From Patescibacteria group bacterium (GTDB lineage: Bacteria; Patescibacteriota; Patescibacteriia; Magasanikbacterales; GWA2-37-8), in NCBI GenBank assembly GCA_041649475.1, contig JBAZNA010000001.1, positions 197,022-261,021 of the forward strand: DNA of 64,000 nt. The letters are read 5' to 3'. Position numbers and translations under genes: made by a program. Below are positions 1,337-61,508 of the stretch, piece by piece. Numbering within the stretch: the stretch's first letter is position 1; each line of letters opens with the position of its first letter. The notes under the pieces were generated by a model. The model did not search any database and was not told where the DNA came from. It worked only from the letters and a program-made list of their open reading frames with translations.

Positions 1337-2704
1337 ATGATAACAATATCTCCAGGAATTTTTAAAGCATACGATATCAGGGGGGTTTATGAAGTGGAAT
1401 TGGATGAGGATTTGGCTTACCGGGTGGGCAAGGCGTTTGCGGAATTTATTAAGAAAGATGCCGGTAAAAACGACTTAACAGTCGCGGTCGGGCAAGATAT
1501 GAGAATTTCTTCGCCGACCTTGTTTGAAGCGGTGGTAAAAGGCATAACCGAACAGGGTGTTAATGTGGTGGATATTGGTTTGGTTTCCACGCCGACTTTT
1601 TATTTTGGCGTCAGCTTCTACGGTTATGACGGCGGTTTGCAGGTTTCGGCTTCGCACAATCCGGCAAAGTATAATGGTTTTAAAATGGTGCGGGCCAGGG
1701 CGGTGCCCATCAGCGGGGAAACCGGAATAATGGAAATCCGGGATATGGCGATTAAAAATGAGTTTGTCGCGGCGCCGGAAAAGGGAAATGTGACAAAGCG
1801 CGAAGGTGTTTTGGAGGAGCAAATAAAATTTGCTTTGCAGTATGTTGATCTCCAAAAAATAAAACCGTTTAAAATTGTCATTGACACGGCCAACGGCATG
1901 GGTGGGCCGATGATGGAAGAATTATTTAAACATTTGCCGTGTAAATTGGAAAAATTATATTTTGAATTGGATGGAACCTTCCCCAATCACGAGGCCGATC
2001 CGTTAAAAGAAGAAAACATGAAGGACTTGCAGAAGCGAGTACTTGAAACCAAAGCGGATTTGGGAATTTCTTTAGATGGCGACGCGGACAGATTATTTTT
2101 TGTTGATGATAAGGGCGTAACCATTGAGCCGGCCATGGTGCGCGGAATTTTGGCCAAGATATTTTTGCGGGATAATCCGGGCGCGAAGATTTGCTATGAC
2201 ATCCGACCGGGAAAAATTACCATTGATATGATTGAAGAGGGCGGGGGCGTGCCGATTGTCACCCGCGTCGGTCATTCTTTGATCAAAGAAAAAATGGCCG
2301 AGGTCGGTTCGGTATTCGCCGGGGAGTCATCCGGGCATTTCTTTTTGAAAATGCCGCACGGAATTTTTGAAGCGCCGGAAATTATGATTTTAAAGATTTT
2401 ACAGGAGTTGTCGGAGAGTGGCCAGAGTTTTAGCGAGTACACCGCGCCCCTGTATAAGTATTTTCATTCCGGTGAAATTAATTTTGAAGTGAAAGACAAA
2501 CAAGCGGTGTTTGATAAGTTGCGGGAAAAATACGGAGCGAATTTGCAGTATGATTTTGACGGTTTGTCATTCCAGTGGCCGGAGTGGTGGTTTAATGTTC
2601 GGGCAAGTAACACAGAGAATAAAATGCGTTTGAATTTGGAAGCGACTAGTGAAGAGATTATGAAAGAGAAAGTTATGGAAGTAAGTGGACTTATTAAATT
2701 TTAA
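1337..2704 (+). CDS. alpha-D-phosphohexomutase (phosphomannomutase/phosphoglucomutase family)
   Basis: 455-aa ORF with the catalytic loop SASHNP and the Mg-binding motif DGDADR. Confidence 0.85.
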   Translation: MITISPGIFKAYDIRGVYEVELDEDLAYRVGKAFAEFIKKDAGKNDLTVAVGQDMRISSPTLFEAVVKGITEQGVNVVDIGLVSTPTFYFGVSFYGYDGGLQVSASHNPAKYNGFKMVRARAVPISGETGIMEIRDMAIKNEFVAAPEKGNVTKREGVLEEQIKFALQYVDLQKIKPFKIVIDTANGMGGPMMEELFKHLPCKLEKLYFELDGTFPNHEADPLKEENMKDLQKRVLETKADLGISLDGDADRLFFVDDKGVTIEPAMVRGILAKIFLRDNPGAKICYDIRPGKITIDMIEEGGGVPIVTRVGHSLIKEKMAEVGSVFAGESSGHFFLKMPHGIFEAPEIMILKILQELSESGQSFSEYTAPLYKYFHSGEINFEVKDKQAVFDKLREKYGANLQYDFDGLSFQWPEWWFNVRASNTENKMRLNLEATSEEIMKEKVMEVSGLIKF

Positions 2705-2729
2705 TTTATTTATATTTAATTTTTAGAAT

Positions 2730-3035
2730 ATGGCGTATGCAGAAAAAAATTTAATAGATAAATTACAAGATGAGATTAGGAATAAGAAGGATAAACAAAT
2801 GGAGGGGTTACGCAGGGCTTTTGAAATTTCTTTTTGGAAATATTGGGATGATCATAGTGAATATCCTAATCTTAATAATGACCAGGATGTTAATCTTTAT
2901 CTTGAGGGCCGTCCAGATTTAAAAGCTGCTGTTTTTAAACTGGATTTGGTTTTGCCTAGAGTGAAAGAAATTGCTTTTGAAATTCTTGAGAATTTAAGGA
3001 AAACAGGGGTAAGAAAAGGTGCGAAGAAGAAATAA
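2730..3035 (+). CDS. hypothetical protein
   Basis: 101-aa ORF in an AT-rich stretch with no recognisable motif. Its 3' end overlaps the convergent ORF 2956..3156. Confidence 0.4.
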   Translation: MAYAEKNLIDKLQDEIRNKKDKQMEGLRRAFEISFWKYWDDHSEYPNLNNDQDVNLYLEGRPDLKAAVFKLDLVLPRVKEIAFEILENLRKTGVRKGAKKK

Positions 3036-3156
3036 GAGTTAAACAATTTCTAAAAATATTTTTAGTGGCCATACCCACTGTTTCACTGTGGTGGGCAACT
3101 CCAACAACTTCGTAAAGTTTGCCTTTGTAGCGCTCGTATTTGCCTAATTTTAGCAT
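2956..3156 (-). pseudogene. possible DUF1653-family remnant
   Basis: The N-terminus MLKLGKYERYKGKLYEVVGVAHHSET resembles the DUF1653 core (YRHYKG..YEV.GVA.HSET). After about 28 aa the similarity is lost, and the frame runs 80 nt into the opposite gene. Confidence 0.3.
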
Positions 3157-3162
3157 AAATAT

Positions 3163-4047
3163 TTACGCCATCCCTCTTAATTTTTTGATTCTGTCTTCAA
3201 TCGGCGGATGAGTGGAGAAAAGATTGGAAACTTTTTTACCGCTAAACGGGCTTGCCAGAAATAAATGGGCAGTGGCCTGATTGGCGTGTGCCAATGGTTG
3301 ATTTTCAGCCGCAATTTTTTCCAAAGCCCGAGCCAAACCTTCGGGATAGCGGGTGAGCAATGATCCGGAAGCATCAGCCAAATACTCTCGCCGGCGGGAA
3401 ATAGCCAATTTTATCAGTTCGGCAATAATTGGAGATAAGATCGCCAAGATAATTCCCACCACCATAAAGATAATGCCGAGATCTCCGCCTTCGCGGTTGT
3501 TGTTTCTTCTCGGCAGCCAACGGCTTCGTAAAAAAATATTTGATAAAATCGCAATTGCTCCCACCATCACCGCCACCAAAGTCATGAAGCGAATGTCATA
3601 GTTCTTAACGTGGGAAAGTTCATGAGCGATTACGCCTTCCAATTCTACGCTTTCTAATTTTTCAATCGCGCCGCGGGTGATGGCAATGGTGGCCATGTCC
3701 GGTTTGCGGCCCGTGGCAAAAGCGTTGATGGCAGGATCTTCCATTATGTATACCTTTGGCACCGGCAAACCGGCAGTGATGCATAAATTTTCAACCAGAT
3801 GATACACATATGGATTTTCATCATGTTCAATCGGGTGGGCGCCGTTTGTCCAAAGCGCAATTTTGTCGCCCTGGAAATATGAAATCGCCGTCATGCCCAG
3901 AGAAAAAATAATCGCAAAGAAAACACCGCCATAACTTCCGGAACCGGAGGCCTGATCAAACACAAACCCCAAAGCAATGATGACCACAATAAAAATCATC
4001 ATCAAAATTATGGATTTTCGTTTGTTGGAATCTATCTCGTTATACAT
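3163..4047 (-). CDS. htpX: M48 zinc metalloprotease HtpX
   Basis: 294-aa membrane protein with the HELSHVKNYD (HExxH) motif and typical HtpX topology. Confidence 0.85.
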   Translation of the reverse strand: MYNEIDSNKRKSIILMMIFIVVIIALGFVFDQASGSGSYGGVFFAIIFSLGMTAISYFQGDKIALWTNGAHPIEHDENPYVYHLVENLCITAGLPVPKVYIMEDPAINAFATGRKPDMATIAITRGAIEKLESVELEGVIAHELSHVKNYDIRFMTLVAVMVGAIAILSNIFLRSRWLPRRNNNREGGDLGIIFMVVGIILAILSPIIAELIKLAISRRREYLADASGSLLTRYPEGLARALEKIAAENQPLAHANQATAHLFLASPFSGKKVSNLFSTHPPIEDRIKKLRGMA

Positions 4048-4062
4048 TTTATGTGTGGCCAG

Positions 4063-4614
4063 CTAGAATTTCACTTGCACGTTTTCCTTTTCCGCCGCAT
4101 CCGCCTGGAAGAAATCGTATTTTTTGAAATTCATCATGCCGGCAAAAATATTTGTCGGGAAGACCTGAATTTGGGTGTTGAAGTCGCGCACGTTGCCGTT
4201 GTAGAAGCGGCGGGAGGCCTGAATTTTATTTTCCGTATCGCTAATTTCACCTTGTAATTGCAAGAAATTCTGATTGGCTTTTAAGTCCGGGTAATTTTCA
4301 CTGACGGCAAACAAGGTTTTTAAGGTGCCTGATAATTGATTTTCCGCTTGTTCGCGTTCAGCCATTGAACCGCCTTTGGCCGACATAGCCGCGGTTCTGG
4401 CTTCAGTTAATTGAACCAAAGTGTCGTGTTCATGGGTCATGTAGCCCTTTACCGTTTCCACTAAATTCGGAATCAAGTCATAGCGGCGTTTCAATTGGAC
4501 GTCAATATCGCTAAAGGCCTCATCCACGCGGTTTTTTGACTTAATTAAACCGTTGTATATGGCTATAATCCAAAAAACGATCACGGCCACTATTGCCAAA
4601 ATTACCCAAAGCAT
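4063..4614 (-). CDS. lemA: LemA family protein
   Basis: 183 aa with an N-terminal TM helix followed by the LemA-like sequence YNGLIKSKNRVDEAFSDIDVQLKRRYDLIPNLVETVKGY. Confidence 0.85.
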   Translation of the reverse strand: MLWVILAIVAVIVFWIIAIYNGLIKSKNRVDEAFSDIDVQLKRRYDLIPNLVETVKGYMTHEHDTLVQLTEARTAAMSAKGGSMAEREQAENQLSGTLKTLFAVSENYPDLKANQNFLQLQGEISDTENKIQASRRFYNGNVRDFNTQIQVFPTNIFAGMMNFKKYDFFQADAAEKENVQVKF

Positions 4615-4727
4615 ATGATTAAGATTAAAATTAAGTTATATTTTCTGCCCGCAGGGCAGCTATTGGCTTTTTCGTGAGTTTATTATATGATATAGCAATA
4701 AAATAAGCAAGATTTTCTCTTTATTGT

Positions 4728-7084: not shown

Positions 7085-9532
7085 ATGCTTATCTCTTTTA
7101 ACTGGTTAAAAAAATACGTCAAGTTACCTGATTCGGTTAGTGCCGAGGATGTAGCTGAAAAATTAAAGCAAAGCACGGTGGAAATTGAAAAAGTGGCCAG
7201 TCGCGCCAAGGATTTGGAAAATATTGTAGTTGGAAAAGTTGTGTCTTGCGATAAACATCCGAATGCCGATAAATTACAGGTTTGCAAAGTCAGCGTCGGC
7301 AATGAAGAAGTGGAAGTTGTTTGCGGAGGCAGTAATGTGAAAGAAGGAATGCTGGTGGCGCTGGCAAAAGTTGGCGCCAAAGTGCGCTGGCATGGAGCCG
7401 GGGAGTTGGTTGAGCTTGCGCCAACAGAGATTCGCGGCGTGAAATCATTCGGGATGATTTGCGCGTCAACTGAAATCGGTCTGGCTGACATGTTTCCTTT
7501 AAAAAGCGAAAAAGAAATTTTGGATTTGAGCGGCGTGAAAGCAAAGCCGGGCGCGCCTTTAAACAAAGCGTTGGGTTTGGATGATGCGGTTTTAGAAATT
7601 GATAATAAATCTTTGAGCAACCGGCCCGATCTGTGGGGGCATTACGGCCTGGCGCGTGAAGTGGCCGCGTTATATAAAAAGGATTTAAAAGCATACGAGG
7701 TCAAGAAAATAAAATCGGGCAAGGGCCTGAAAGTGAAAGTAGAAATTGAAGATAAAAAGTTGTGTCCGCGGTATATGGCCGTGGCCGTCTCGGGAATTAA
7801 GGTGAAAGAGTCCCCGGAGTGGCTAAAGAAAAGTTTGTTAGCAGTGGGCCTGCGACCAATAAACAACATCGTTGATATCACCAATTATGTGATGATGGAT
7901 TTGGGTCAGCCCATGCATGCGTTTGATGCCAAGGTTTTATCTGGCGATAAGAAACAGGCCGCGATTGTGGTGCGGCGTGCGAAAGACGGCGAAGAATTCG
8001 TTACTTTGGATGAACAGAAAAGAAAATTGGATTCGTCAATGCTTATGATTGCCAATCCGGAAAAATCGTTGGCCATTGCCGGCGTAATGGGCGGGATGGA
8101 AAGCGGAATTAATGCCGGTACTGATACTATAATTTTTGAATCCGCCAATTTTGATGCTTCATCAATAAGAAAAACGTCTACTAAATTGGGTTTGCGCACT
8201 GATTCATCGGCTCGTTTTGAAAAAAGTTTGGATCCGAATTTGTGCGTGTCGGCTTTAAGCAAAGCCGTCCAATTGGCGCTGGAATTAAATCCCGGCGCCG
8301 GTGTAGGCGGTAATATTGCCGATGAAGCAAATTTTCATCTTAGCACGGGTCCAATAGGATTTGGCCTGGAATATTTGAAGAAAATTGCCGGAGTGGAAAT
8401 TTCCAAAAAAGAAGCGGTAAGCATTTTAGAACGATTGGGTTTTGCGGTCACCGGTAAAGGCGATGAAATGAAAGTAAAAATTCCCAGCTGGCGCGCCACC
8501 AAAGACATCTCTCTTCCCGAGGACTTGGTTGAAGAAATTGTGCGTATTTATGGCTATGAAAATATATTGTCTGCGATGCCGACGTTTCCGATAAACCCGC
8601 CGGAAGAAAACAAAGTGCGTAAACTGGAAAGACAAATTAGGGATTTGCTGGTAAAAGAAATGTCATATACGGATATGTATAATTATTCTTTTGTCAGTCC
8701 GCAGATGATTGCCAAAATGAATGATGATGTTAAAAAATATATTGAACTTGATAATCCAATTTCGCAGGAACGGCCGTATGTGCGCCGGCATTTAATCACT
8801 AACCTGTTGGAAAATATTTTAAAAAATATTGATAATCATCCCACTTTGCGTTTATTTGAAATCGGTAAAACCTTTATAAGTGAAAAGCCGGGGCAAAGAA
8901 CAATGGCCAACAATGACGATCTGCTTCCGCGCCAGGACACCTGGCTGACAAGTGTGTTTGTGGAAAAGAAAAATGCGGCGCCGTTTTGGCAGGCACGCCG
9001 GGTAGTGGAAAATATTCTGGGCGATTTGGGGCAAAATTTTGAAGTGAAGGTGCCGAAAGAAATTTATCCGTGGCAGCATAAAGCGCGCGTGGCCAGAGTA
9101 ATGGTTGCCGGAGAAGATGTGGGTTCGGTTTATGAACTTAATCCGGCCGCGGGAGCCAACTTAGGTTTAGAGTGGAGCGTGGGCGTGGCGGCGTTAAACA
9201 TTGATAAGCTGGCAATGCTGCCTGTGTCTGACAAAAAATATAAACCACTGTCAGAATATCCGGCCATAGAACGGGATTTGGCGATTTTGGTGAAAAAAGA
9301 AGTTTCACACGGTGAAATTATTTCAGCCCTGGCGCACACTGATCCGATTTTAGCATCTGTGGATCTGTTTGACGTCTATGAAGGAGAGAACATCGGCGCC
9401 GGTTACAAAAGCATGGCTTATCATTTTGTCTATCGCGACCTTAAGCGAACCCTTACGGCCGGAGAGGTTGAAAAAGTGCACAGTAAAATTTTAAAAATTC
9501 TTCAGGAAAAATTTAAAGCGAGCGTGAGATAG
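7085..9532 (+). CDS. pheT: phenylalanine--tRNA ligase beta subunit
   Basis: 815 aa, directly after pheS. It has the N-terminal tRNA-binding OB domain (HPNADKLQVCKV), B3/4 and B5 regions, and a FDX-ACB C-terminus. Confidence 0.95.
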   Translation: MLISFNWLKKYVKLPDSVSAEDVAEKLKQSTVEIEKVASRAKDLENIVVGKVVSCDKHPNADKLQVCKVSVGNEEVEVVCGGSNVKEGMLVALAKVGAKVRWHGAGELVELAPTEIRGVKSFGMICASTEIGLADMFPLKSEKEILDLSGVKAKPGAPLNKALGLDDAVLEIDNKSLSNRPDLWGHYGLAREVAALYKKDLKAYEVKKIKSGKGLKVKVEIEDKKLCPRYMAVAVSGIKVKESPEWLKKSLLAVGLRPINNIVDITNYVMMDLGQPMHAFDAKVLSGDKKQAAIVVRRAKDGEEFVTLDEQKRKLDSSMLMIANPEKSLAIAGVMGGMESGINAGTDTIIFESANFDASSIRKTSTKLGLRTDSSARFEKSLDPNLCVSALSKAVQLALELNPGAGVGGNIADEANFHLSTGPIGFGLEYLKKIAGVEISKKEAVSILERLGFAVTGKGDEMKVKIPSWRATKDISLPEDLVEEIVRIYGYENILSAMPTFPINPPEENKVRKLERQIRDLLVKEMSYTDMYNYSFVSPQMIAKMNDDVKKYIELDNPISQERPYVRRHLITNLLENILKNIDNHPTLRLFEIGKTFISEKPGQRTMANNDDLLPRQDTWLTSVFVEKKNAAPFWQARRVVENILGDLGQNFEVKVPKEIYPWQHKARVARVMVAGEDVGSVYELNPAAGANLGLEWSVGVAALNIDKLAMLPVSDKKYKPLSEYPAIERDLAILVKKEVSHGEIISALAHTDPILASVDLFDVYEGENIGAGYKSMAYHFVYRDLKRTLTAGEVEKVHSKILKILQEKFKASVR

Positions 9533-9540
9533 TAAAAAAT

Positions 9541-9569
9541 TTGTTGCATCTTTAAATTTGTGCTATAAT
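9541..9569 (+). promoter_or_regulatory. sigma70-type promoter (TTGTTG-N17-TATAAT with extended TGc)
   Basis: The sequence reads ttgttg catctttaaatttgtgc tataat. It lies 39 nt upstream of the 9608 start. Confidence 0.5.
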
Positions 9570-9607
9570 ATCTTCAGATTATTTTTATTTTTAATTTAAG
9601 GAGCGGT

Positions 9608-9994
9608 ATGATAGAAACTTCCAAAGATATTTTATACCTGGTCATCGCGTTTTGTGTTTTGTGGCTGACGGTTTTTCTCTGCTGGACGTTTTTCTACGTG
9701 GTGAAAATTTTAAAGAACACCAACCGGGTGGTTGAAGAATTTCGCTCGCGCCTGCAACTGCTAACTGAAACCATAAATTATGTGCGCGGCAAGGTGGAAA
9801 GCATTCATGCTTTGATTGGTTTAGCCGGCGGCAATGTAGCCAATGCCGTAAAAAATATCGTGAGCAAGAAAGCCAAAGAATGGGTTGATAGCGGTTCTAA
9901 AAAAATGAATACTTCAGCTAAAGACGCGGTGGACTTTGCGGTAAAAGCGACTGCAAAGGGCATGAGCAAGGTAGCAAAGAAGATTAGAAGATAA
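9608..9994 (+). CDS. small membrane-anchored protein (DUF948/YtxH-like, tentative)
   Basis: 128 aa with one N-terminal TM helix and then a Lys/Ala-rich helical region. AAGGAG lies 4 nt before the ATG. Confidence 0.6.
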   Translation: MIETSKDILYLVIAFCVLWLTVFLCWTFFYVVKILKNTNRVVEEFRSRLQLLTETINYVRGKVESIHALIGLAGGNVANAVKNIVSKKAKEWVDSGSKKMNTSAKDAVDFAVKATAKGMSKVAKKIRR

Positions 9995-10010
9995 AATAAA
10001 TTTAAACAAG

Positions 10011-10032
10011 AGAGCCCACCCGGGCTCTTTTA
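10011..10032 (+). terminator. intrinsic terminator
   Basis: Hairpin agagccc-accc-gggctct followed by tttt. Confidence 0.7.
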
Positions 10033-10046
10033 AGTTGCCTCCTATC

Positions 10047-10075
10047 TTGACAAAAAAATATTTTTAGTGTATTCT
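10047..10075 (+). promoter_or_regulatory. candidate promoter of GC-rich gene 1 (TTGACA-N17-TATTCT)
   Basis: The -35 hexamer is perfect and the -10 is moderate. The 5' UTR is about 70 nt and contains small hairpins. Confidence 0.4.
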
Positions 10076-10149
10076 TGGTGATTATTCCTTAGGTAAGGAA
10101 GCCCGGACCATTCCGGTTCGGGTATGATGATAGAGGAAGGAGAAAAAAG

Positions 10150-10497
10150 ATGGGAATGCGCGCGAAGGACTGGGAGGCGGCCCAGGCCGTTTTCTTGAAA
10201 GAGGCCGGTGCCGACCCTGACCCCGACGATTCGTGGACCGTAGTTCGGTCGCCGAGTTTGCAGGAGCTTCTGCTGGCAAAGGAGCAGGAGTTCCCGGTTG
10301 AGCTCGAGCTCTCCGACGGCCGCAAGATGACCGTGTTCGTCGAGGATATCAAGGACCCCGACGCGCACGGCGAAGTGGAGGTGTACGTAATGTACGTCGC
10401 CAACGGCAACCGGCGCCGGCGGTACCTGCACTTCACCCCCGACGTCTACGAGCCCAGGGTCAACGTCTACCCCGAGCCCAAGGAATCCGTGGGCTGA
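10150..10497 (+). CDS. GC-rich orphan protein 1 (115 aa, acidic, no recognised domain)
   Basis: AGGAG lies 7 nt before the ATG. Hand count gives 38/60 G+C in the first 60 nt. Third codon positions in this frame are overwhelmingly G/C. The gene has its own promoter and terminator. Confidence 0.65.
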   Translation: MGMRAKDWEAAQAVFLKEAGADPDPDDSWTVVRSPSLQELLLAKEQEFPVELELSDGRKMTVFVEDIKDPDAHGEVEVYVMYVANGNRRRRYLHFTPDVYEPRVNVYPEPKESVG

Positions 10498-10520
10498 CCC
10501 CACTTCCTCCCTCGTCTCAC

Positions 10521-10548
10521 GCCCAAGCATCTGCTTGGGCCTTTTTTT
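10521..10548 (+). terminator. intrinsic terminator
   Basis: Hairpin gcccaagc-atct-gcttgggc followed by cttttttt. Confidence 0.8.
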
Positions 10549-10549
10549 G

Positions 10550-10578
10550 TTGATTTTGTTATGGCTTTCGGGTAAGAT
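10550..10578 (+). promoter_or_regulatory. candidate dnaE promoter (TTGATT-N17-TAAGAT)
   Basis: The -10 ends only 9 nt before the dnaE ATG, which implies a very short leader or none. Confidence 0.4.
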
Positions 10579-10587
10579 ACGAGCACT

Positions 10588-13500
10588 ATGCCCGACTTTG
10601 TTCACCTCCATGTCCACAGCCATTATTCGCTTTTAGATGGCCTGCCAAAAATTGACGAGCTAGTTAAGCATGCCAAAAGTTTGGGCATGACTGCCCTTGC
10701 CCTCACCGATCATGGTAATATGTATGGCGCCATTGAGTTTTATGAGCGGTGTCAGAAAGAGGGAATAAAACCGATCATCGGCATGGAGGCATACTTGGCT
10801 CCGGGCAGTCGTTTTGATAAAAATCAAAATGACAAGTATTATCATCTGGTGTTGTTGGCTTTGGATTATACCGGTTATAGAAATTTGATGAAGCTGGCTT
10901 CGCTGGCTCATCTGGAGGGGTTCTATTACAAACCCCGTGTTGATAAAGAACTTCTAAAACAATATCATGAAGGTTTGGTTGCTTCATCTGCCTGTTTTGG
11001 CGGCGAGATTCCTTGGATTTTGCGCAAAGAAGATAATTTTGAGAAAGCCAAAAAAGTGGCGTTGGAATACGAAGAAATTTTTGGCAAAGGAAATTTTTAT
11101 CTGGAACTGCAGGACTTGCCGGGTTTGGAAGGTCAGATGGAGATGAATACAAAATTAATTAAGCTTTCCCAAGATACTGGCGTCCCGCTTATTGTCACCC
11201 GTGACGTGCATTATTTGAAACCGGAGGACGCCGAAGCCCAGGATATTTTAACCTGCATCCGCGACGGCCGGACTTTGGATGAACCCAATCGCCAGACCAT
11301 GAATGCGGTTGATTGTTCAATGGCTAGCGTCAAAGAAATCGCCGGCCGCTTTAAACATATTCCTGAAGCATTGGAGAACACGGTTAAGATTGCCGAAAGA
11401 GCGAATCTGGTTTTAGAACTTAATAAATGGCATTTTCCGCCTCTTGAGCTTCCGGTCGGGCAGACCGCCGACAGTTATTTGCGCGAGCAGGTTTATGAAA
11501 GATTGCCGAAGCTGTTGCAGATAACCGAGGAGGTGAAAAAAAGAGTTGACTATGAGTTGGAAATTATCGCCAAAAAAGGTTATTCTCCGTATTTTTTAAC
11601 AGTTGCCGATTATGTGCAGTATGCGCGCGACCACGGCATTGCCGAAACGACCAGGGGCTCGGCTGCTGGTTCAATCGTTTCTTACGCTATAGGAATCGTC
11701 ACTGTTAATCCGCTGTATTTCAAATTGCCGTTTGAAAGATTTTTAAATCCATTCCGTCCCAGCCCGCCGGATATTGACGCGGACTTCGCCGACGACCGCC
11801 GCGACGACATGATTGCTTATGTCACGCAAAAATATGGTGCGGACAAAGTGGCGCAGATTATTACCTTCGGAACGATGATGGCGCGCGGAGCGGTGCGCGA
11901 TGTGGGCCGAGCGCTGGGCTATACCTATTCTTTTTGCGATCAGATTTCAAAAATGATTCCTTTTGGCGCGCAGGGTTTTCACATGAATATTGCCAAAGCC
12001 ATGGAGCTGGAGCCGGATTTAAAAAAATTATACGATCAAAATCCGCAAGCCCACCGTTTATTGGATTTGGCGCAAAAAGTGGAGGGCTGCGCCCGACACA
12101 CTTCCATACACGCGGCCGGAGTGGTGATTTCACCGACGCCGCTTACGGATTTTACTCCGGTTCAGCGCGAAACCGGCGGTGAGAGAATTACCACTCAATA
12201 TGAAATGCACGCGGTGGAGGCGGCTGGAGTTTTGAAAATGGACTTTTTGGGGATCCGCAATTTATCTATTTTGGGTCATGCCGTGGAAATTATAGAAAAA
12301 ACAACCGGCCAGAAAATTGATATCTACAAATTGCCCTGGGATGACAAAAAAACCTATGAAATGCTGGCGCGCGGTGAAACTATCGGTGTGTTCCAGCTTT
12401 CCGGATCTGGCATGACCAGATATTTGAAAGAATTAAAGCCGGCCAGCATCTTTGATATTATGGCCATGGTGGCACTGTTTCGCCCCGGGCCAATGGAATC
12501 AATTCCCGAATATATAAAAAGAAAAAATCATCCGGAACTGATTGAATATCTTGATCCGCGCATGGAAAATTATCTTGATCAGTCCCTGGGCTTGATTGTT
12601 TATCAGGACGACGTTTTGCTTACGGCTATAAATTTGGCCGGATACAATTGGGAGGAAGCGGATAAATTCAGAAAAGCGATGGGCAAGAAAATTCCGGAAG
12701 AAATGGCCAAGCAGAAAGAGAAATTTTTTAAGGGCTGCCGTGAATTCGGGCATTTGTCCGAAGCAAAAATCAACACCCTGTGGGAACGCATTGAGCCGTT
12801 TGCCGCTTATGGTTTTAACAAGGCCCATGCCTGCAGTTATGGAGTTGTGGCCTATCAGACCGCCTATCTGAAAGCTAATTTTCCGGTGCAGTATATGACC
12901 GCGATTTTGATTGCGGAAAGCGGCGACATTGATAAAGTGCCGGAAATTATTCATGAGTGCGAGAGAATCGGCATAAAGGTCTTACCGCCCGATGTTAATG
13001 AAAGTTTTAAAAATTTCGCCATGATTTCGCCGGAAGACGGATCCGAGCCGCACATTAGGTTCGGTTTAAACGGCATAAAAAATCTGGGCGAGCATATTGC
13101 CGAAGTGATTTACCGCGAACGCAAAGAACATGGCACGTATAAAGACCTGCAGGATTTGCTCACGCGTGTAAATGATAAGGATTTAAACAAAAAGTCCCTG
13201 GAAAGTTTGGCTAAATGTGGCGCGCTTGATTGTTTTGGCCATGACCGGGGATTGCTTTTGGCCAACACGGACAACCTTTTGGGTTTTGTCAGGCAGATGC
13301 ATGAGAAAACCCAATCAAACCAGAATTCGCTTTTTTCAGGCACAACGATTGATTTGTCCGCCAAAGTTCAGCTTAATCCGGCGCCCCTGGCCGATGAAGC
13401 CGACAAGCTGATTTGGGAAAAAGAATTGCTGGGACTCTTCGTCACTTCCCATCCATTTAAGTATTTTGAAAAAATTATGAACGGCGTGCTGACACCGATT

Positions 13501-15597: not shown

Positions 15598-15671
15598 TGT
15601 CAGGGGAGGGAGTCGGACCCTCGACCTTAGGGTTATGAATCCTACGCTCTTACCAACTGAGCTACCCTGAC
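15598..15671 (-). tRNA. tRNA with CAU anticodon (elongator Met or lysidine-Ile2)
   Basis: Hand-folded cloverleaf with acceptor GTCAGGG/CCCTGAC, anticodon loop TTCATAA and T arm GAGGG-TCCGACT-CCCTC. CCA is not encoded. Confidence 0.9.
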
Positions 15672-16834: not shown

Positions 16835-16909
16835 GGCCCCATCGTCTAGTGGTTAGGACATCTCGCTTTCAATGAGAAAACACGGGTCCGATTCCCGTTG
16901 GGGCTACCA
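16835..16909 (+). tRNA. tRNA-Glu (UUC), CCA encoded
   Basis: GGCCCCATCGTCTAGTGGTTAGGAC..., anticodon loop CTTTCAA, T arm ACGGG-TCCGATT-CCCGT and a 3' ACCA. Confidence 0.9.
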
Positions 16910-18073: not shown

Positions 18074-18400
18074 TCACAGGACCACTTCTTCGTAGTAGTC
18101 GGCCCGCTCGTGGCTAGCGTAGGGGCTTGATTTGGCATCCTTGAGCGCAGCTGCGGCGAACGGTTCGTCTATGGTGACCTCGGCAACGTTCTCGCACTTG
18201 GCGATCAACAGCTGACAACCATCACAGCCGAATCCGGTCACGGTTGCCAGAACCAGCGCCTCCTTGATCTTCGGTACCCGGCCCTCTTTGCGGATGGCTT
18301 CGGCCACATCGGCCGCGTTTTCTCCACCGCAGTCGGTCCAGAACTTGAAAACAACCTCATCACCCTTGCGCACACTAACGAGTCCGGTTTTTCCGTGCAT
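18074..18400 (-). CDS. GC-rich orphan protein 3 (108 aa; contains a CDGC CxxC motif)
   Basis: AAGGAGG lies 6 nt before the ATG, and the SD starts on the stop codon of the upstream low-GC oxidase gene (cctAAGGAGGggtgatATG). G+C rises abruptly at this junction. Confidence 0.6.
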   Translation of the reverse strand: MHGKTGLVSVRKGDEVVFKFWTDCGGENAADVAEAIRKEGRVPKIKEALVLATVTGFGCDGCQLLIAKCENVAEVTIDEPFAAAALKDAKSSPYASHERADYYEEVVL

Positions 18401-25928: not shown

Positions 25929-26282
25929 TTAGGTGTCAACCGTCTCCACCGGAGGGTTGGGCACTGTTGGCCCCCAGAGAGGGACGAATTCCGTGCTCTG
26001 GAAGTTCTTGCGACACAACTCTTCAAGACCAGGGGTATCGCCATCGTAGATGACCCGGGAGGCCGTAATCACGGCCCGATCCTGCTTGGACCCGAACCCC
26101 ATCTGGGCGGCCAAGTTGTAGGCGTTCCTAGCCGAAGGGGCTTCACCGTTTTTTTGCACTTCCGCGCGAATTGCGTCAGCAAAACGCTTGGTGAGATTGC
26201 CGCCGCGGCCAACCACAACTTTCATCAAAACCACGTCGCCTCGGAAAACGATGACCATTCCCGGAACAGCAGTCGTGGACAT
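25929..26282 (-). CDS. GC-rich orphan protein 4 (117 aa; N-terminal block similar to orphan 3)
   Basis: AAGGAGG lies 7 nt before the ATG. The gene has its own promoter and terminator. It shares 13 of 33 ungapped identities with the 18074..18400 product. Confidence 0.65.
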   Translation of the reverse strand: MSTTAVPGMVIVFRGDVVLMKVVVGRGGNLTKRFADAIRAEVQKNGEAPSARNAYNLAAQMGFGSKQDRAVITASRVIYDGDTPGLEELCRKNFQSTEFVPLWGPTVPNPPVETVDT

Positions 26283-29440: not shown

Positions 29441-29473
29441 ACTATCCCTGCATTATAAACATAATTTTAAAAT

Positions 29474-29504
29474 AAAAAAAGAGCTTCCCTGGGGAGGGAA
29501 GTTC
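29474..29504 (-). terminator. intrinsic terminator of GC-rich gene 5
   Basis: On the minus strand: gaacttccct-cccc-agggaagctc followed by ttttttt. Confidence 0.75.
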
Positions 29505-29580
29505 AGTGGGGGTTGGCTCCGGTGTGATCGCCTGATGGCGAATTGGAGCACGGTAGGAAAGAGCAGGGCGGGGCGGCTGG

Positions 29581-29922
29581 CTAGCCGGCGGCGGAAGCGG
29601 CGATGGGGGCGATCTTGGGCTGGATGTCGATCACGGGGATCGGCTCGGGCAGACCGTCGAAGCGCTGGCGGAGCCAGTCGATCTCGGGCTCCGAGGCCTC
29701 GCCCATGAAGATCTCGATGTAGAACGTCCCCCTGATGAGGCCCTCGTACTTCAGCTTGAAGCCGGGGATCTCGTCGTCGAAGTCGGCCTTGTGCGGCCTG
29801 TTGACGTACCTGTTGAAGTCGTTGAGCGAGCAGTACCTGACGCTGCCGTCCACGAACTGGATCCGTACGGCCCTTGTCTGCAAGGTCGTGTCCGGGAACG
29901 TCATCAGCTTCTGGATCGGCAT
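29581..29922 (-). CDS. GC-rich orphan protein 5 (113 aa, no recognised domain)
   Basis: AAGGAG lies 6 nt before the ATG at 29922 (MPIQKLMTFPD...). The longer track ORF start has no SD. Confidence 0.6.
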   Translation of the reverse strand: MPIQKLMTFPDTTLQTRAVRIQFVDGSVRYCSLNDFNRYVNRPHKADFDDEIPGFKLKYEGLIRGTFYIEIFMGEASEPEIDWLRQRFDGLPEPIPVIDIQPKIAPIAASAAG

Positions 29923-30037
29923 CTCCCTCTCCTTGGGACTACGAGCTCGTGTGACCATCTTGTTATGCCTCCCTTGTTTCCGTGTTGGGCCCAATGCCCC
30001 TAAACTTGTTGGCCTTGTCCAGGCCGTGATGGGCTAA

Positions 30038-30066
30038 ATGGTATCACAATAATACGATTATGTCAA
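30038..30066 (-). promoter_or_regulatory. candidate promoter of GC-rich gene 5 (TTGACA-N17-TACCAT)
   Basis: It lies back-to-back with the infB promoter and implies a GC-rich 5' UTR of about 108 nt. Confidence 0.45.
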
Positions 30067-55734: not shown

Positions 55735-55763
55735 TTGACAAGAGAGCTGTTTTAGTGTTAATT
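55735..55763 (+). promoter_or_regulatory. candidate promoter of GC-rich gene 7 (TTGACA-N17-TTAATT, with TG upstream)
   Basis: Its -35 hexamer overlaps, on the opposite strand, the -35 of a TTGTCA-N17-TAAAAT promoter (55713..55741) that faces the sugar-transferase gene. Confidence 0.45.
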
Positions 55764-55838
55764 TAACGTGCTGTGGCGAAACCATTCTGGCCAAGCCCGA
55801 CAGCGTCTGTAAACACGGTCGTATAAAGGAGACAAAAC

Positions 55839-56504
55839 ATGGCGACCGCAAAACAGATTCCGTTTTTGATGGGAAGGTTGGTGGAGCATCAGTTTTACTT
55901 CTGTGCTTTGTCCACCGCAAGCGCCACGTGGGCGAGCCAAAACCCGAAAGACGCCATTGCCTTGTGCGTGGCGGCGATCGAGAATCGCCAAAAGGAGCGT
56001 CAGTCCGACCCGGCGCCTTCGCCACTCCTCACCTTGGTCGGTGCCGTCGTGATCTGGCTGGCCGTGAGGTTCGTTGCCAGTGAACACCTGGTGAAGAATA
56101 CCGAGAAGAACGCGCCGGTGAAGATTTCCTACATCTTCGATAAGGTCACCGTGTGGTTCCAGGGCAAGATCGAGGAGCGGGTCGAGGGCGAGATGGCTCT
56201 GTGCTGCCATACCCTGAACTCCGACTCGGACGATAACCTCATCATCAACCAGCTCGGCGGCGAGACCAAGGCCGAGACCGCCCTTGCCGAGGTCTTTGCC
56301 TGCTTGGAGAAGCAACCCAACGGCGAGGATGGTGCGCTACTCACTAACGGCCACGCGAACATCTTCTATGTTCGCAACACCGAAGGTGTGTTGTGCGTGA
56401 TCCAAGTGATCTGGCGCGGTGACGGTTGGACCTTCTACACCCGTTCGGTCGGTTCTCTGGACACATGTACCGAGGGCCGCCGGGTGTTCTCCCGCGCCGC
56501 ATAG
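55839..56504 (+). CDS. GC-rich orphan protein 7 (221 aa; one hydrophobic segment LLTLVGAVVIWLAVRFVA)
   Basis: AAGGAG lies 7 nt before the ATG. A strong terminator follows the gene. No recognisable domain. Confidence 0.6.
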   Translation: MATAKQIPFLMGRLVEHQFYFCALSTASATWASQNPKDAIALCVAAIENRQKERQSDPAPSPLLTLVGAVVIWLAVRFVASEHLVKNTEKNAPVKISYIFDKVTVWFQGKIEERVEGEMALCCHTLNSDSDDNLIINQLGGETKAETALAEVFACLEKQPNGEDGALLTNGHANIFYVRNTEGVLCVIQVIWRGDGWTFYTRSVGSLDTCTEGRRVFSRAA

Positions 56505-56524
56505 TTTGTTCCTTCCTTCCAAGC

Positions 56525-56556
56525 GCCCCGCCTGTCAGATGGTGGGGCATTTTTTT
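56525..56556 (+). terminator. intrinsic terminator
   Basis: gccccgcc-tgtcagat-ggtggggc followed by attttttt. Confidence 0.8.
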
Positions 56557-56565
56557 ATCCAAATC

Positions 56566-56594
56566 TTGACAAAACCCCTCATTTGTGCTATAGT
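56566..56594 (+). promoter_or_regulatory. rnpB promoter (TTGACA-N17-TATAGT, extended TGc)
   Basis: ttgaca aaacccctcatttgtgc tatagt. The -10 ends 7 nt before the P1 stem. Confidence 0.65.
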
Positions 56595-56600
56595 TAACCC

Positions 56601-56994
56601 ATTCATAGCGGATGATCGAGCCGACTTAGTCGGCTAGGAAAGTCCGAACACCCAAGATGGCAGTGGGTAACGCCCACCGCTACGGTGGCAACGCCGTGGT
56701 TGGGAAAGTGGCACAGAGACAATTCTAACCCCGACAAGCTCGGGGTAAAAGGTGAAAAGTGTATGGGGGATTTGGTTCTCGAGACCAAAGCTACTATACT
56801 CGGCTGATAGCAATATCAGTTCGTGCTAAACCCTGCCTGGTGCAAGAGCAGCGTTTCGCGGCGCAAAACCGCGGTTCGAAAAGTTCGCTCGCTAGAACGC
56901 GTTAGCAATAACGCGTCCAGATAAATGATCGTCACCTCGCCCCATTTTTAAACAAAATGGTGCGGAGCACAAAATTCGGCTTATAGCTATGAAT
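56601..56994 (+). ncRNA. rnpB: RNase P RNA (bacterial type A)
   Basis: P1 pairing attcatagc/gctatgaat. P4 strands GGAAAGTCCGAACAC and ACAAAATTCGGCTTAT. Also GGGTAACGCCCAC, GGGAAAGTGGCACAGAGA and AGATAAATGATCG. Confidence 0.9.
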
Positions 56995-57024
56995 AAAAAA
57001 GACGACCCGCAAGGGCCGTCTTTT
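56995..57024. terminator. bidirectional intrinsic terminator
   Basis: aaaaaa gacgaccc-gcaa-gggccgtc tttt, between rnpB (+) and the convergent 57040..58578 gene (-). Confidence 0.75.
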
Positions 57025-61426: not shown

Positions 61427-61508
61427 TGGGCGAGGAGGGATTTGAACCCTCATGACCGAAGTCATACGCTTCTGAGACGTACGCGTATACCAATTCCGCC
61501 ACTCGCCC
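61427..61508 (-). tRNA. tRNA-Leu (CAG), class II with long variable arm
   Basis: rc reads GGGCGAGTGGCGGAATTGGTA...CTCAGAA...TGACTTCGGTCAT GAGGG-TTCAAAT-CCCTC CTCGCCCA. Confidence 0.9.

Follow-up and report, generated by a model that had tools for sequence, protein, structure and literature searches.

Why does a short GC-rich unit, with what appear to be its own promoter and terminator, lie between two core genes of a small bacterial chromosome, and does it encode a functional protein? The question arises in a stretch of 64,000 nucleotides (64 kb; hereafter, the window) of contig JBAZNA010000001.1 (assembly GCA_041649475.1) from a Magasanikbacteria-like Patescibacterium with a genome of 963 kb. 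The unit, denoted c1 below, is located in a region containing genes for peptidase M50, pheS, pheT, a DUF948-like gene, and dnaE, and separates the last two of these. An earlier note, made from the nucleotide sequence alone, described it as a cleanly inserted module. The analysis presented here indicates that c1 is probably a real accessory gene that forms an independent transcription unit and was inserted exactly between the terminator of the DUF948-like gene and the dnaE promoter.

Layout and apparent insertion of the c1 cassette

The GC content reaches 0.64 over positions 10158-10541 of the window, compared with 0.42-0.43 in the flanks and 0.435 over the entire window. All parts of c1 lie on the forward strand, and the promoter, Shine-Dalgarno (SD) sequence, acidic open reading frame (ORF) of 115 amino acids (aa), and terminal 8-bp GC hairpin with a T7 run that the earlier note listed were all found in place. 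The entire module, about 515 bp comprising promoter, leader, coding sequence, 3' untranslated region (UTR), and terminator, spans 10033..10548, as delimited by comparison with related loci and by reading the junctions. A consensus scan detected a putative sigma-70-type promoter, TTGACA-N17-TATTCT (10047..10075), the best promoter-like match in 9400-10800. Its hexamers (TTGACA, 10047-10052; TATTCT, 10070-10075) match 10 of the 12 consensus positions, with a TTTTAGTG context ahead of the -10 element, and the predicted transcription start site (TSS) lies near 10082. The predicted 5' leader (10082..10149) contains a small hairpin at 10086-10099, a second, stronger one that is rich in GC (about 10101-10123), and the SD sequence AAGGAG (10137-10142), 7 nt ahead of the ATG at 10150. 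At 68 nt, the predicted leader agrees with the previously proposed length of about 70 nt, and the small hairpin, tcctt-aggt-aagga, is present in the sequence; however, this hairpin lies outside the minimum-energy fold of the leader, which itself is not unusual (z = -1.0 compared with shuffles).

The coding sequence (10150..10497; NCBI locus tag WC526_01050), recognized by its periodicity, a structural model, and the NCBI annotation, is followed by a CU-rich 3' UTR (10498..10520; CCCCACTTCCTCCCTCGTCTCAC). This segment is partially complementary to the SD region, and we rejected this pairing as a regulatory feature (duplex z = -1.75, not significant). The predicted intrinsic terminator (10521..10548, from scan and fold), which forms the right boundary of the insert, consists of an 8-bp GC-rich stem, a 4-nt loop, a C, and T7; the stem-loop GCCCAAGC-atct-GCTTGGGC (10521-10540) has a free energy of -15.5 kcal/mol and z = -4.0 compared with shuffles. 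Rfam covariance models yielded no match at the gathering score in the c1 region (the best sub-threshold scores are 20-22 bits, against cut-offs of 39-111), and, with the leader fold insignificant as well, a structured RNA element was discarded as an identity of c1.

Both flanking elements are host sequences. On the left, the terminator of the DUF948-like gene (10008..10032, forward strand), a hairpin and T-run found by hairpin scan, abuts the insert; the same layout of stop codon, hairpin, and T-run was seen in all 12 relatives that were read. On the right, outside the insert, lies the ancestral dnaE promoter (10550..10578, forward strand), TTGATT (10550-10555)-N17-TAAGAT (10573-10578), with the dnaE ATG at 10588. 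This promoter, already recognized at 10550 in the earlier note, is conserved in position and sequence across the relatives.

For comparison, we collected loci anchored on DnaE, 80 of them genomic and 80 metagenomic, and counted gaps over the 47 genomic loci that contain both the DUF948-like gene and dnaE in the same orientation. In 26 of the 47 loci, including close relatives with 80-83% identical DnaE, the two genes are separated by an AT-rich gap of 59-205 bp. Read base by base, such an empty site consists of a stop codon, hairpin, T-run, a few bases, TTGATTTTG...TAAGAT, and ATG. The window has, in contrast, 593 bp with 55% GC between the DUF948 terminator and the dnaE promoter, and its approximately 515 extra bases fall exactly between the DUF948 T-run and the dnaE -35 element, both of which are as in the relatives. 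The intergenic comparison that had been suggested as a check therefore bears out the description of a cleanly inserted module, since the same terminator and dnaE promoter adjoin in those 26 relatives, and we take c1 to be an insertion at this junction, judging from the compared sequences. The window is matched exactly over 7,277 bp, both junctions included, by an independent Logan assembly (L001, run SRR8542065).

No terminal inverted repeats were found at 10033 and 10548, and there is no convincing target-site duplication, only an ambiguous 4-bp GTTG at both junctions; a 12-nt TTCGGGTAWGAT repeat is within chance expectation. On these grounds, an insertion sequence (IS) element or a miniature inverted-repeat transposable element (MITE) was rejected as the identity of c1. 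A search with a 22-mer from the dnaE leader for a strain of the same species with an empty site gave no match, in a collection that lacks the genome of c1 itself.

c1 encodes an orphan protein

Three ORFs of 115 codons or more overlap at the locus. Stop-free runs of this length occur in some frame in 33% of the shuffles of the GC-rich segment, so that the length of the c1 ORF is no evidence for coding. The composition of the three codon positions is far more telling: in the + frame, the GC content at the first, second, and third positions (GC1/2/3) is 0.68/0.37/0.85 (chi-square 63, p = 2e-14), a spread reached by none of 20,000 shuffles, and the GC3 of 0.85 compares with 0.46-0.51 in the flanks. 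The NCBI annotation of the source metagenome-assembled genome (MAG) calls the same frame (WC526_01050). Thus, c1 is a protein-coding sequence in the + frame.

The protein consists of 115 aa, has an isoelectric point of 4.65 and a net charge of -9, and contains no cysteine and no catalytic or cofactor motifs. Its amino acid make-up is of the high-GC type, with GARP/FYMINK fractions of 0.28/0.20 compared with 0.24/0.29-0.30 for host proteins. Structure prediction and a remote homology search, both proposed in the earlier note, gave a confident model and no relative. The AlphaFold2 (AF2) single-sequence model (predicted local distance difference test, pLDDT, 78.8; predicted template modeling score, pTM, 0.67) has a helix at the N terminus and then an antiparallel sheet of six strands, and has no fold match in the PDB or among viral folds. 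A word-indexed search of 5.8 billion clusters recovered only c1 itself, in a single-member cluster, and an exhaustive phmmer search of 1.84 billion representatives recovered c1 and two long tandem-repeat proteins (P0002 and P0003) only. These two we dismissed as artefacts, their scores being sums of weak matches to one beta-hairpin. There is no match in Pfam, PHROGs, PADLOC, or NCBIfam; tblastn detected nothing in 50,697 phage records and 72,556 plasmid records, and none was found in IMG/VR, so that a phage or plasmid origin was rejected. The c1 protein is an orphan among about 15 billion proteins. Given its size, charge, lack of motifs, orphan status, and the turnover pattern described below, it might be a small binding protein or inhibitor located in the cytoplasm and drawn from a conflict-type accessory pool with fast turnover, a tentative assignment.

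Different cargo at the same junction in related genomes

The remaining 21 of the 47 genomic loci have larger content between the DUF948-like gene and dnaE. The closest match to c1 in layout is a metagenomic locus (L130, positions 2390-2990; DnaE 84% identical) with a cassette at this junction whose design matches that of c1 exactly. After the terminator come TTGACA-N17-TATAAT, about 60 nt of leader, GGAGG, an ORF of 132 aa with GC1/2/3 of 0.67/0.42/0.80, and a hairpin with T7; the conserved dnaE promoter follows. The closest relative (L091; DnaE 85% identical) carries at this site a 1.2-kb insert (1800-3000) with a GC-rich 160-aa ORF (GC3 0.81) on the opposite strand and, beyond it, an AT-rich stretch with long inverted repeats. 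Neither ORF has a Pfam or NCBIfam match. In yet another genome (L028), the site itself contains a complete diversity-generating retroelement (DGR).

The window, L091, and L130, in which the site is occupied by three mutually unrelated GC-rich ORFs, form one clade, with the empty-site genomes placed mostly elsewhere, in a rough neighbor-joining tree of 300 DnaE residues without bootstrap. Such a distribution is compatible with a single insertion event in an ancestor shared by the window, L130, and perhaps L091, after which the cassette would have diverged beyond recognition into the current genes through extremely fast evolution. The c1 and L130 cassettes indeed share orientation, order of parts, approximate size (115 and 132 aa), and a similar GC1/2/3 profile; when read by eye, both proteins appear to start with a helix-prone segment followed by a W-T strand, and their leaders are weakly more similar than expected by chance (z = 2.25). 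We nevertheless consider descent from one insertion unlikely. The two proteins show no relationship (BLASTP E = 2.3; Smith-Waterman z = -0.8), the L091 ORF is on the opposite strand, the tree that groups the three loci has no support values, and the promoter and leader of c1 are no closer to those of L130 than to those of c5, an unrelated cassette elsewhere in the window, even though the adjacent dnaE promoter is well conserved. The same comparison with c5 means that the leader similarity is no evidence for a conserved landing pad, and a landing pad or shared cassette leader was rejected. Under the alternative that we prefer, that of separate acquisitions, the DUF948/dnaE junction is a hotspot that repeatedly acquires cargo.

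Two further features were observed at or near this slot. In a sister clade, it is occupied by a different small gene (88-101 aa, with the motif ...Y(E/A)xYYxELLxxY...; L007 5558-5824, L013 5601-5906, and L101 2328-2594), which in L007 lacks the high GC content. In several relatives (L003, L052/L105, and L091), palindromic elements of the type GTCATTCCCGCGAAAGCGGGAATC... are inserted in the dnaE leader, between the -10 element and the ATG, and elements of the same type lie at L014 5829-5993; these look like a miniature repeat element common in these genomes.

Five GC-rich units in one window

Besides c1, the window holds four further GC-rich units, that is, five in 64 kb. c2 (18074-18400, minus strand; 108 aa) has no promoter of its own, with an SD sequence directly after a 433-aa gene, whereas c3 (25929-26282, minus strand; 117 aa) has its own predicted TTGACA-N17-TAAAAT promoter and terminator; the two are paralogs with 39% identity over 57 aa and have no family match. 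c4, between truB and infB on the minus strand (unit 29581-29994, ORF 29581-29958, in the region 29470-30066), has a single homolog, 58% identical, on short Logan contigs (L082/L083), with which it shares promoter and leader. The GC3 is 0.90 in c4 and 0.95 in its homolog, where the flanks have 0.46. c5 (ORF 55839-56504, in the region 55735-56555, plus strand; 221 aa, GC3 0.78) belongs to a Patescibacteria family of DGR targets. The layout of promoter, leader, SD sequence, ORF, and terminator described for c1 recurs at c3, c4, c5, and L130, and CU-rich 3' UTRs resembling that of c1 are found in c4, c5, L130, and L082.

The relative synonymous codon usage (RSCU) of c1 correlates with that of the most GC-rich other islands (c4, c5, and islands of other genomes) at r = 0.62-0.86, and with that of the remaining islands at 0.37-0.68, compared with -0.07 to 0.19 for host genes. 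The base composition, codon usage, and amino acid make-up of c1 are thus shown to be foreign to the host and to match those of GC-rich genes scattered through the lineage. A single recent transfer followed by amelioration fits poorly with the GC3 of 0.90-0.95 in c4 and its homolog, which lie in AT-richer contexts, and with the relatives of c5, which stay GC-elevated across several genomes; in the c4 pair, extreme GC3 outlasts considerable divergence of the protein. A and T are both depleted at third codon positions, so the pattern is not the adenine-specific footprint of a DGR reverse transcriptase.

The predicted c1 promoter is of a type that the organism apparently uses. The window contains 11 copies of TTGACA-N16-18-TANNNT compared with 1.7 +/- 1.3 in shuffles, an approximately 6-fold enrichment, and none of 100 shuffles reached 11. 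One of them serves as an internal positive control for the use of such promoters by this organism, namely, TTGACA-N17-TATAGT at 56566-56594, which stops 6 nt short of where RNase P RNA begins (Rfam RF00010, 175 bits; 56600-56999). Four of the 11 precede GC-rich cassettes (c1, c3, c4, and c5), and the c1 and c5 promoters have the TTTTAGTG context before the -10 element in common. In the consensus promoters at 10047, 28563, 55735, 56566, and 63677, (T)TAGTG or TGTG occurs one base before the -10 hexamer; this shared context suggests a putative TGn-type extended -10 element in this genome. RNase P RNA also explains part of the fifth GC-rich region of the window. Three tRNAs are located at 15598-15671, 16835-16906, and 61427-61508.

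Relationship to diversity-generating retroelements

The presence of c5 in the same window raises the possibility that c1, too, is a present or recent DGR target, in which the 3' part would be rewritten from a remote template repeat (TR) and the GC hairpin would serve both target recognition and termination. GC-rich islands of this lineage are often DGR targets, as in L028, at the very same site, in L013 and L026, and among the c5 homologs of L084-L088. The L028 DGR (1681-4654) combines a 298-aa target (GC3 0.86), in which 14 of the 14 mismatches between the TR and the variable region (VR) are at TR adenines, with AT-rich genes for Avd and reverse transcriptase (RT) alongside. In all seven DGR loci (L028, L013, L026, L084, L085, L086, and L088), the target is GC-rich over its full length, with a GC3 of 0.56-0.88, compared with 0.29-0.53 for Avd and RT, which resemble the neighboring AT-rich host genes; c1 shares the codon usage of these targets. 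c5 has about ten homologs, which adjoin bAvd and RT in four independent loci. The 3' ends of the homologs in these loci pair with template repeats, with 17/17, 18/20, 18/20, and 16/17 mismatches at adenines (the 17/17 in L084 and the 14/14 in L028 served as positive controls). A c5 homolog without a DGR in L008 has a host-like GC3 of 0.25. c5 itself carries the VR-end motif GGTGTTCTCCCGC near 56480 and is, as far as its sequence indicates, an orphan or remote DGR target, the window having no RT, Avd, or template repeat.

For c1, the case is much weaker, and we consider its being a DGR target distinctly improbable. Five RT and Avd queries were run by tblastn against the window without a match below E = 0.1, a test that is not decisive alone because remote DGR targets are known. 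No repeat of any part of c1 was found in the 64-kb window or in any fetched locus, and none of the TRs and VRs in about 170 related loci resembles c1. It is also dissimilar to the c5 variable region and cannot, therefore, share the template of c5. The conserved VR-end motif GGTGTTCTCYCGC, which resembles an initiation of mutagenic homing (IMH) site and is present in c5, L084, L085, and L088, is absent from c1, and hhalign gives a probability of 0.2% for c1 against the c5 target family. The c1 protein is half the usual size of a DGR target, and its 90%-identity cluster has a single member, with no variants on record. The hairpin at 10521-10540 is a GC-rich inverted repeat just after the stop codon, as in many DGR targets (PMC5758913), but a T7 run comes after it, and it can equally be read as an ordinary intrinsic terminator. 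Since RT, Avd, and TR are missing from the 64-kb window, and c1 has neither the VR motif nor profile similarity to the c5 family, DGR-target identity was rejected for c1 within the sequence covered. An outward walk from the window in search of the DGR of this genome ended, on one side, at an edge gene with no record and, on the other, at one recorded solely on a 4-kb Logan contig.

The 3' UTRs of the DGR-target type share a short periodic run of YTYGG-like motifs (for example, ccttgg-gatctttgg-gttttgacccttagg) before the terminator hairpin. The run was observed just after the stop codons in L084 (4622-4700), L085 (4682-4750), L028 (2578-2640), L086, L088, L026, L013, and L046; c1 has no such run and has the CU-rich 3' UTR instead.

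Non-functional DNA and minus-strand ORFs

A more radical possibility is that the segment is non-functional foreign DNA, that is, a dead fragment from a GC-rich neighbor or host cell, or an assembly chimera, and that its ORF, promoter, and terminator arose by coincidence. Patescibacteria are believed to acquire DNA from their surroundings, chance ORFs of this length are common in the shuffles, as noted above, and c1 is an orphan without homologs for which expression is only predicted. Nonetheless, we regard this possibility as very remote. The codon periodicity implies that c1 evolved as a coding sequence, in exactly the frame that is served by the SD sequence and ATG, and this + frame is the only one with a confident fold prediction. 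A 10/12 promoter, an optimally spaced SD sequence, and a terminator with z = -4, in the right order and orientation, are an unlikely accident, the more so as the layout recurs at c3, c4, c5, and L130, and the agreement of two assemblies, base for base, argues against a chimera.

There is next to no chance that the real gene is on the minus strand, as the earlier note had considered for a 193-aa ORF (10042-10623), and as the equal length of a 115-aa ORF (10089-10436) might suggest: the GC1/2/3 values of these ORFs (0.70/0.37/0.62 and 0.39/0.65/0.78, respectively) are the mirror images expected antisense to a GC3-rich gene, neither has a Pfam match, the NCBI annotation takes the + frame, the longer ORF runs through the c1 terminator, the conserved dnaE promoter, and the first 36 nt (12 codons) of dnaE, and its product is modeled by AF2 from the single sequence at a pLDDT of 31 and a pTM of 0.19, compared with 78.8 and 0.67 for the + frame, while a 186-aa antisense ORF likewise overlies the unrelated L130 cassette, which makes such ORFs a by-product of GC-rich composition.

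A possible mode of action and wider implications

The reading of c1 as an inserted, independently transcribed accessory gene can be put as a sequence of steps. RNA polymerase would start at the near-consensus, host-type promoter, with a TSS near 10082, and the 68-nt leader would present AAGGAG 7 nt ahead of the ATG. The product would be an acidic, cysteine-free, soluble alpha/beta protein of 115 aa. Transcription would be expected to halt at the GC hairpin and U7, so that dnaE would keep its ancestral promoter, insulated from the insert. By its sequence signals, then, c1 is probably transcribed and translated as an independent unit. Comparison of the loci shows the unit to be an insertion at a site that tolerates and repeatedly acquires cargo. 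The protein may bind another macromolecule, perhaps as an inhibitor or as an immunity-type or anti-defense-type factor; of the functions that can be envisaged, this one seems best placed, while still being doubtful.

Several points weigh against this reading. The c1 promoter, TSS, and SD sequence are predictions. The AF2 confidence comes from one sequence, with the five models ranging in pLDDT from 56 to 79, and the functional guess derives solely from size, charge, lack of motifs, and turnover pattern. No donor lineage or vehicle was found for c1, and homologs would be expected in the databases had it come recently from a high-GC organism that is well sampled. The data are also compatible with c1 being a recently acquired, neutral or decaying gene, there being no homolog with which selection could be measured.

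In a broader interpretation, c1 would be a member of an undescribed, lineage-wide class of transcript-sized GC-rich cassettes in Patescibacteria, comprising DGR targets and orphans, each with a near-consensus promoter and a hairpin terminator, located at terminator/promoter junctions of core genes, with an extreme GC3 (0.7-0.95 in genomes of 35-45% GC) that is actively maintained or continually re-supplied and is not the fading remnant of a single transfer. As yet, we consider the existence of such a class rather unlikely. We found no paper in the literature on GC-rich Patescibacteria cassettes or on GC-rich DGR targets beside AT-rich RT genes. If real, the class would imply a dedicated exchange mechanism or a hidden GC-rich reservoir, or else a GC-enriching process tied to retroelement activity, and the cassettes would constitute a hypervariable interaction toolkit of these symbionts.

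With its precise junctions, intact predicted expression signals, and a confident predicted fold without relatives, c1 is a well-documented case of an orphan gene acquired horizontally and a clean candidate for studying the roles of orphan genes in ultra-small symbiotic bacteria that have little spare genome. The more valuable lead is the wider pattern: five cassettes in 64 kb, turnover of the slot in sister genomes, and GC-rich targets beside AT-rich RT and Avd. If this pattern proves general, an outlying GC3 would offer an easy means of flagging, across whole genomes, the fast-evolving interaction genes of Patescibacteria, and the mechanistic question would arise of why GC-rich cassette genes resist the mutational bias of the host.

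Comparison with known systems

As a small single-gene unit that encodes an orphan, occupies a defined position, and shows high turnover, c1 resembles an integron cassette. However, integron cassettes are normally promoterless, end in attC, and lie beside an integrase and attI, whereas c1 has its own predicted promoter, its sole strong inverted repeat is the terminator hairpin with T7 (no attC covariance model was run), and the cassettes of the window are dispersed rather than arrayed.

Strain-specific genomic islets are variable slots between syntenic core genes that hold different small accessory genes in each genome. The c1 slot, too, holds different small genes, and the atypical composition of c1 implies a horizontal origin. 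The differences are the magnitude of the deviation (GC3 of 0.85 compared with about 0.47), the lack of any homolog among about 15 billion proteins, and the precision of the insertion to a terminator/promoter junction; furthermore, the pair of c4 and its L082 homolog, 58% identical, keeps a GC3 of 0.90 and 0.95, unlike in simple amelioration.

The variable-protein genes of DGRs from Patescibacteria (clade 2 in Roux et al. 2021, PMC8144416; surveyed in Wu et al. 2018, PMC5758913) belong to the same compositional class as c1, with target GC3 of 0.56-0.88 in AT-rich genomes, and likewise have a strong TTGACA promoter and a hairpin and T-run at the end. The L028 DGR occupies the same intergenic slot as c1, and a member of a target family, c5, is in the same window. 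Unlike these genes, c1 has no VR/TR pair, no nearby RT or Avd, no VR-end motif, and no homology to any target family, and is about half the usual size.

Among the systems considered, c1 comes closest to phage morons, which are independent units of promoter, gene, and terminator between conserved phage genes (Cumby, Davidson and Maxwell 2012, PMC3594210). As in morons, extra DNA of deviant GC content lies between two genes that are adjacent in relatives, with its own predicted promoter and terminator and a single small gene, and the same slot holds different cargo in related genomes. In contrast to morons, c1 resides on the core chromosome of an approximately 1-Mb Patescibacterium, among pheS/pheT, the DUF948-like gene, and dnaE, outside any phage or prophage, and is not similar to phage records, IMG/VR contigs, PHROGs, or viral folds; nor does the way in which morons are expressed, from within a repressed prophage, apply to it. 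Three of the four defining features of a moron are thus found in c1, the fourth being residence in a phage or prophage. The phage moron is, accordingly, the closest described concept, and c1 is best characterized as a moron-like accessory islet with an orphan gene.

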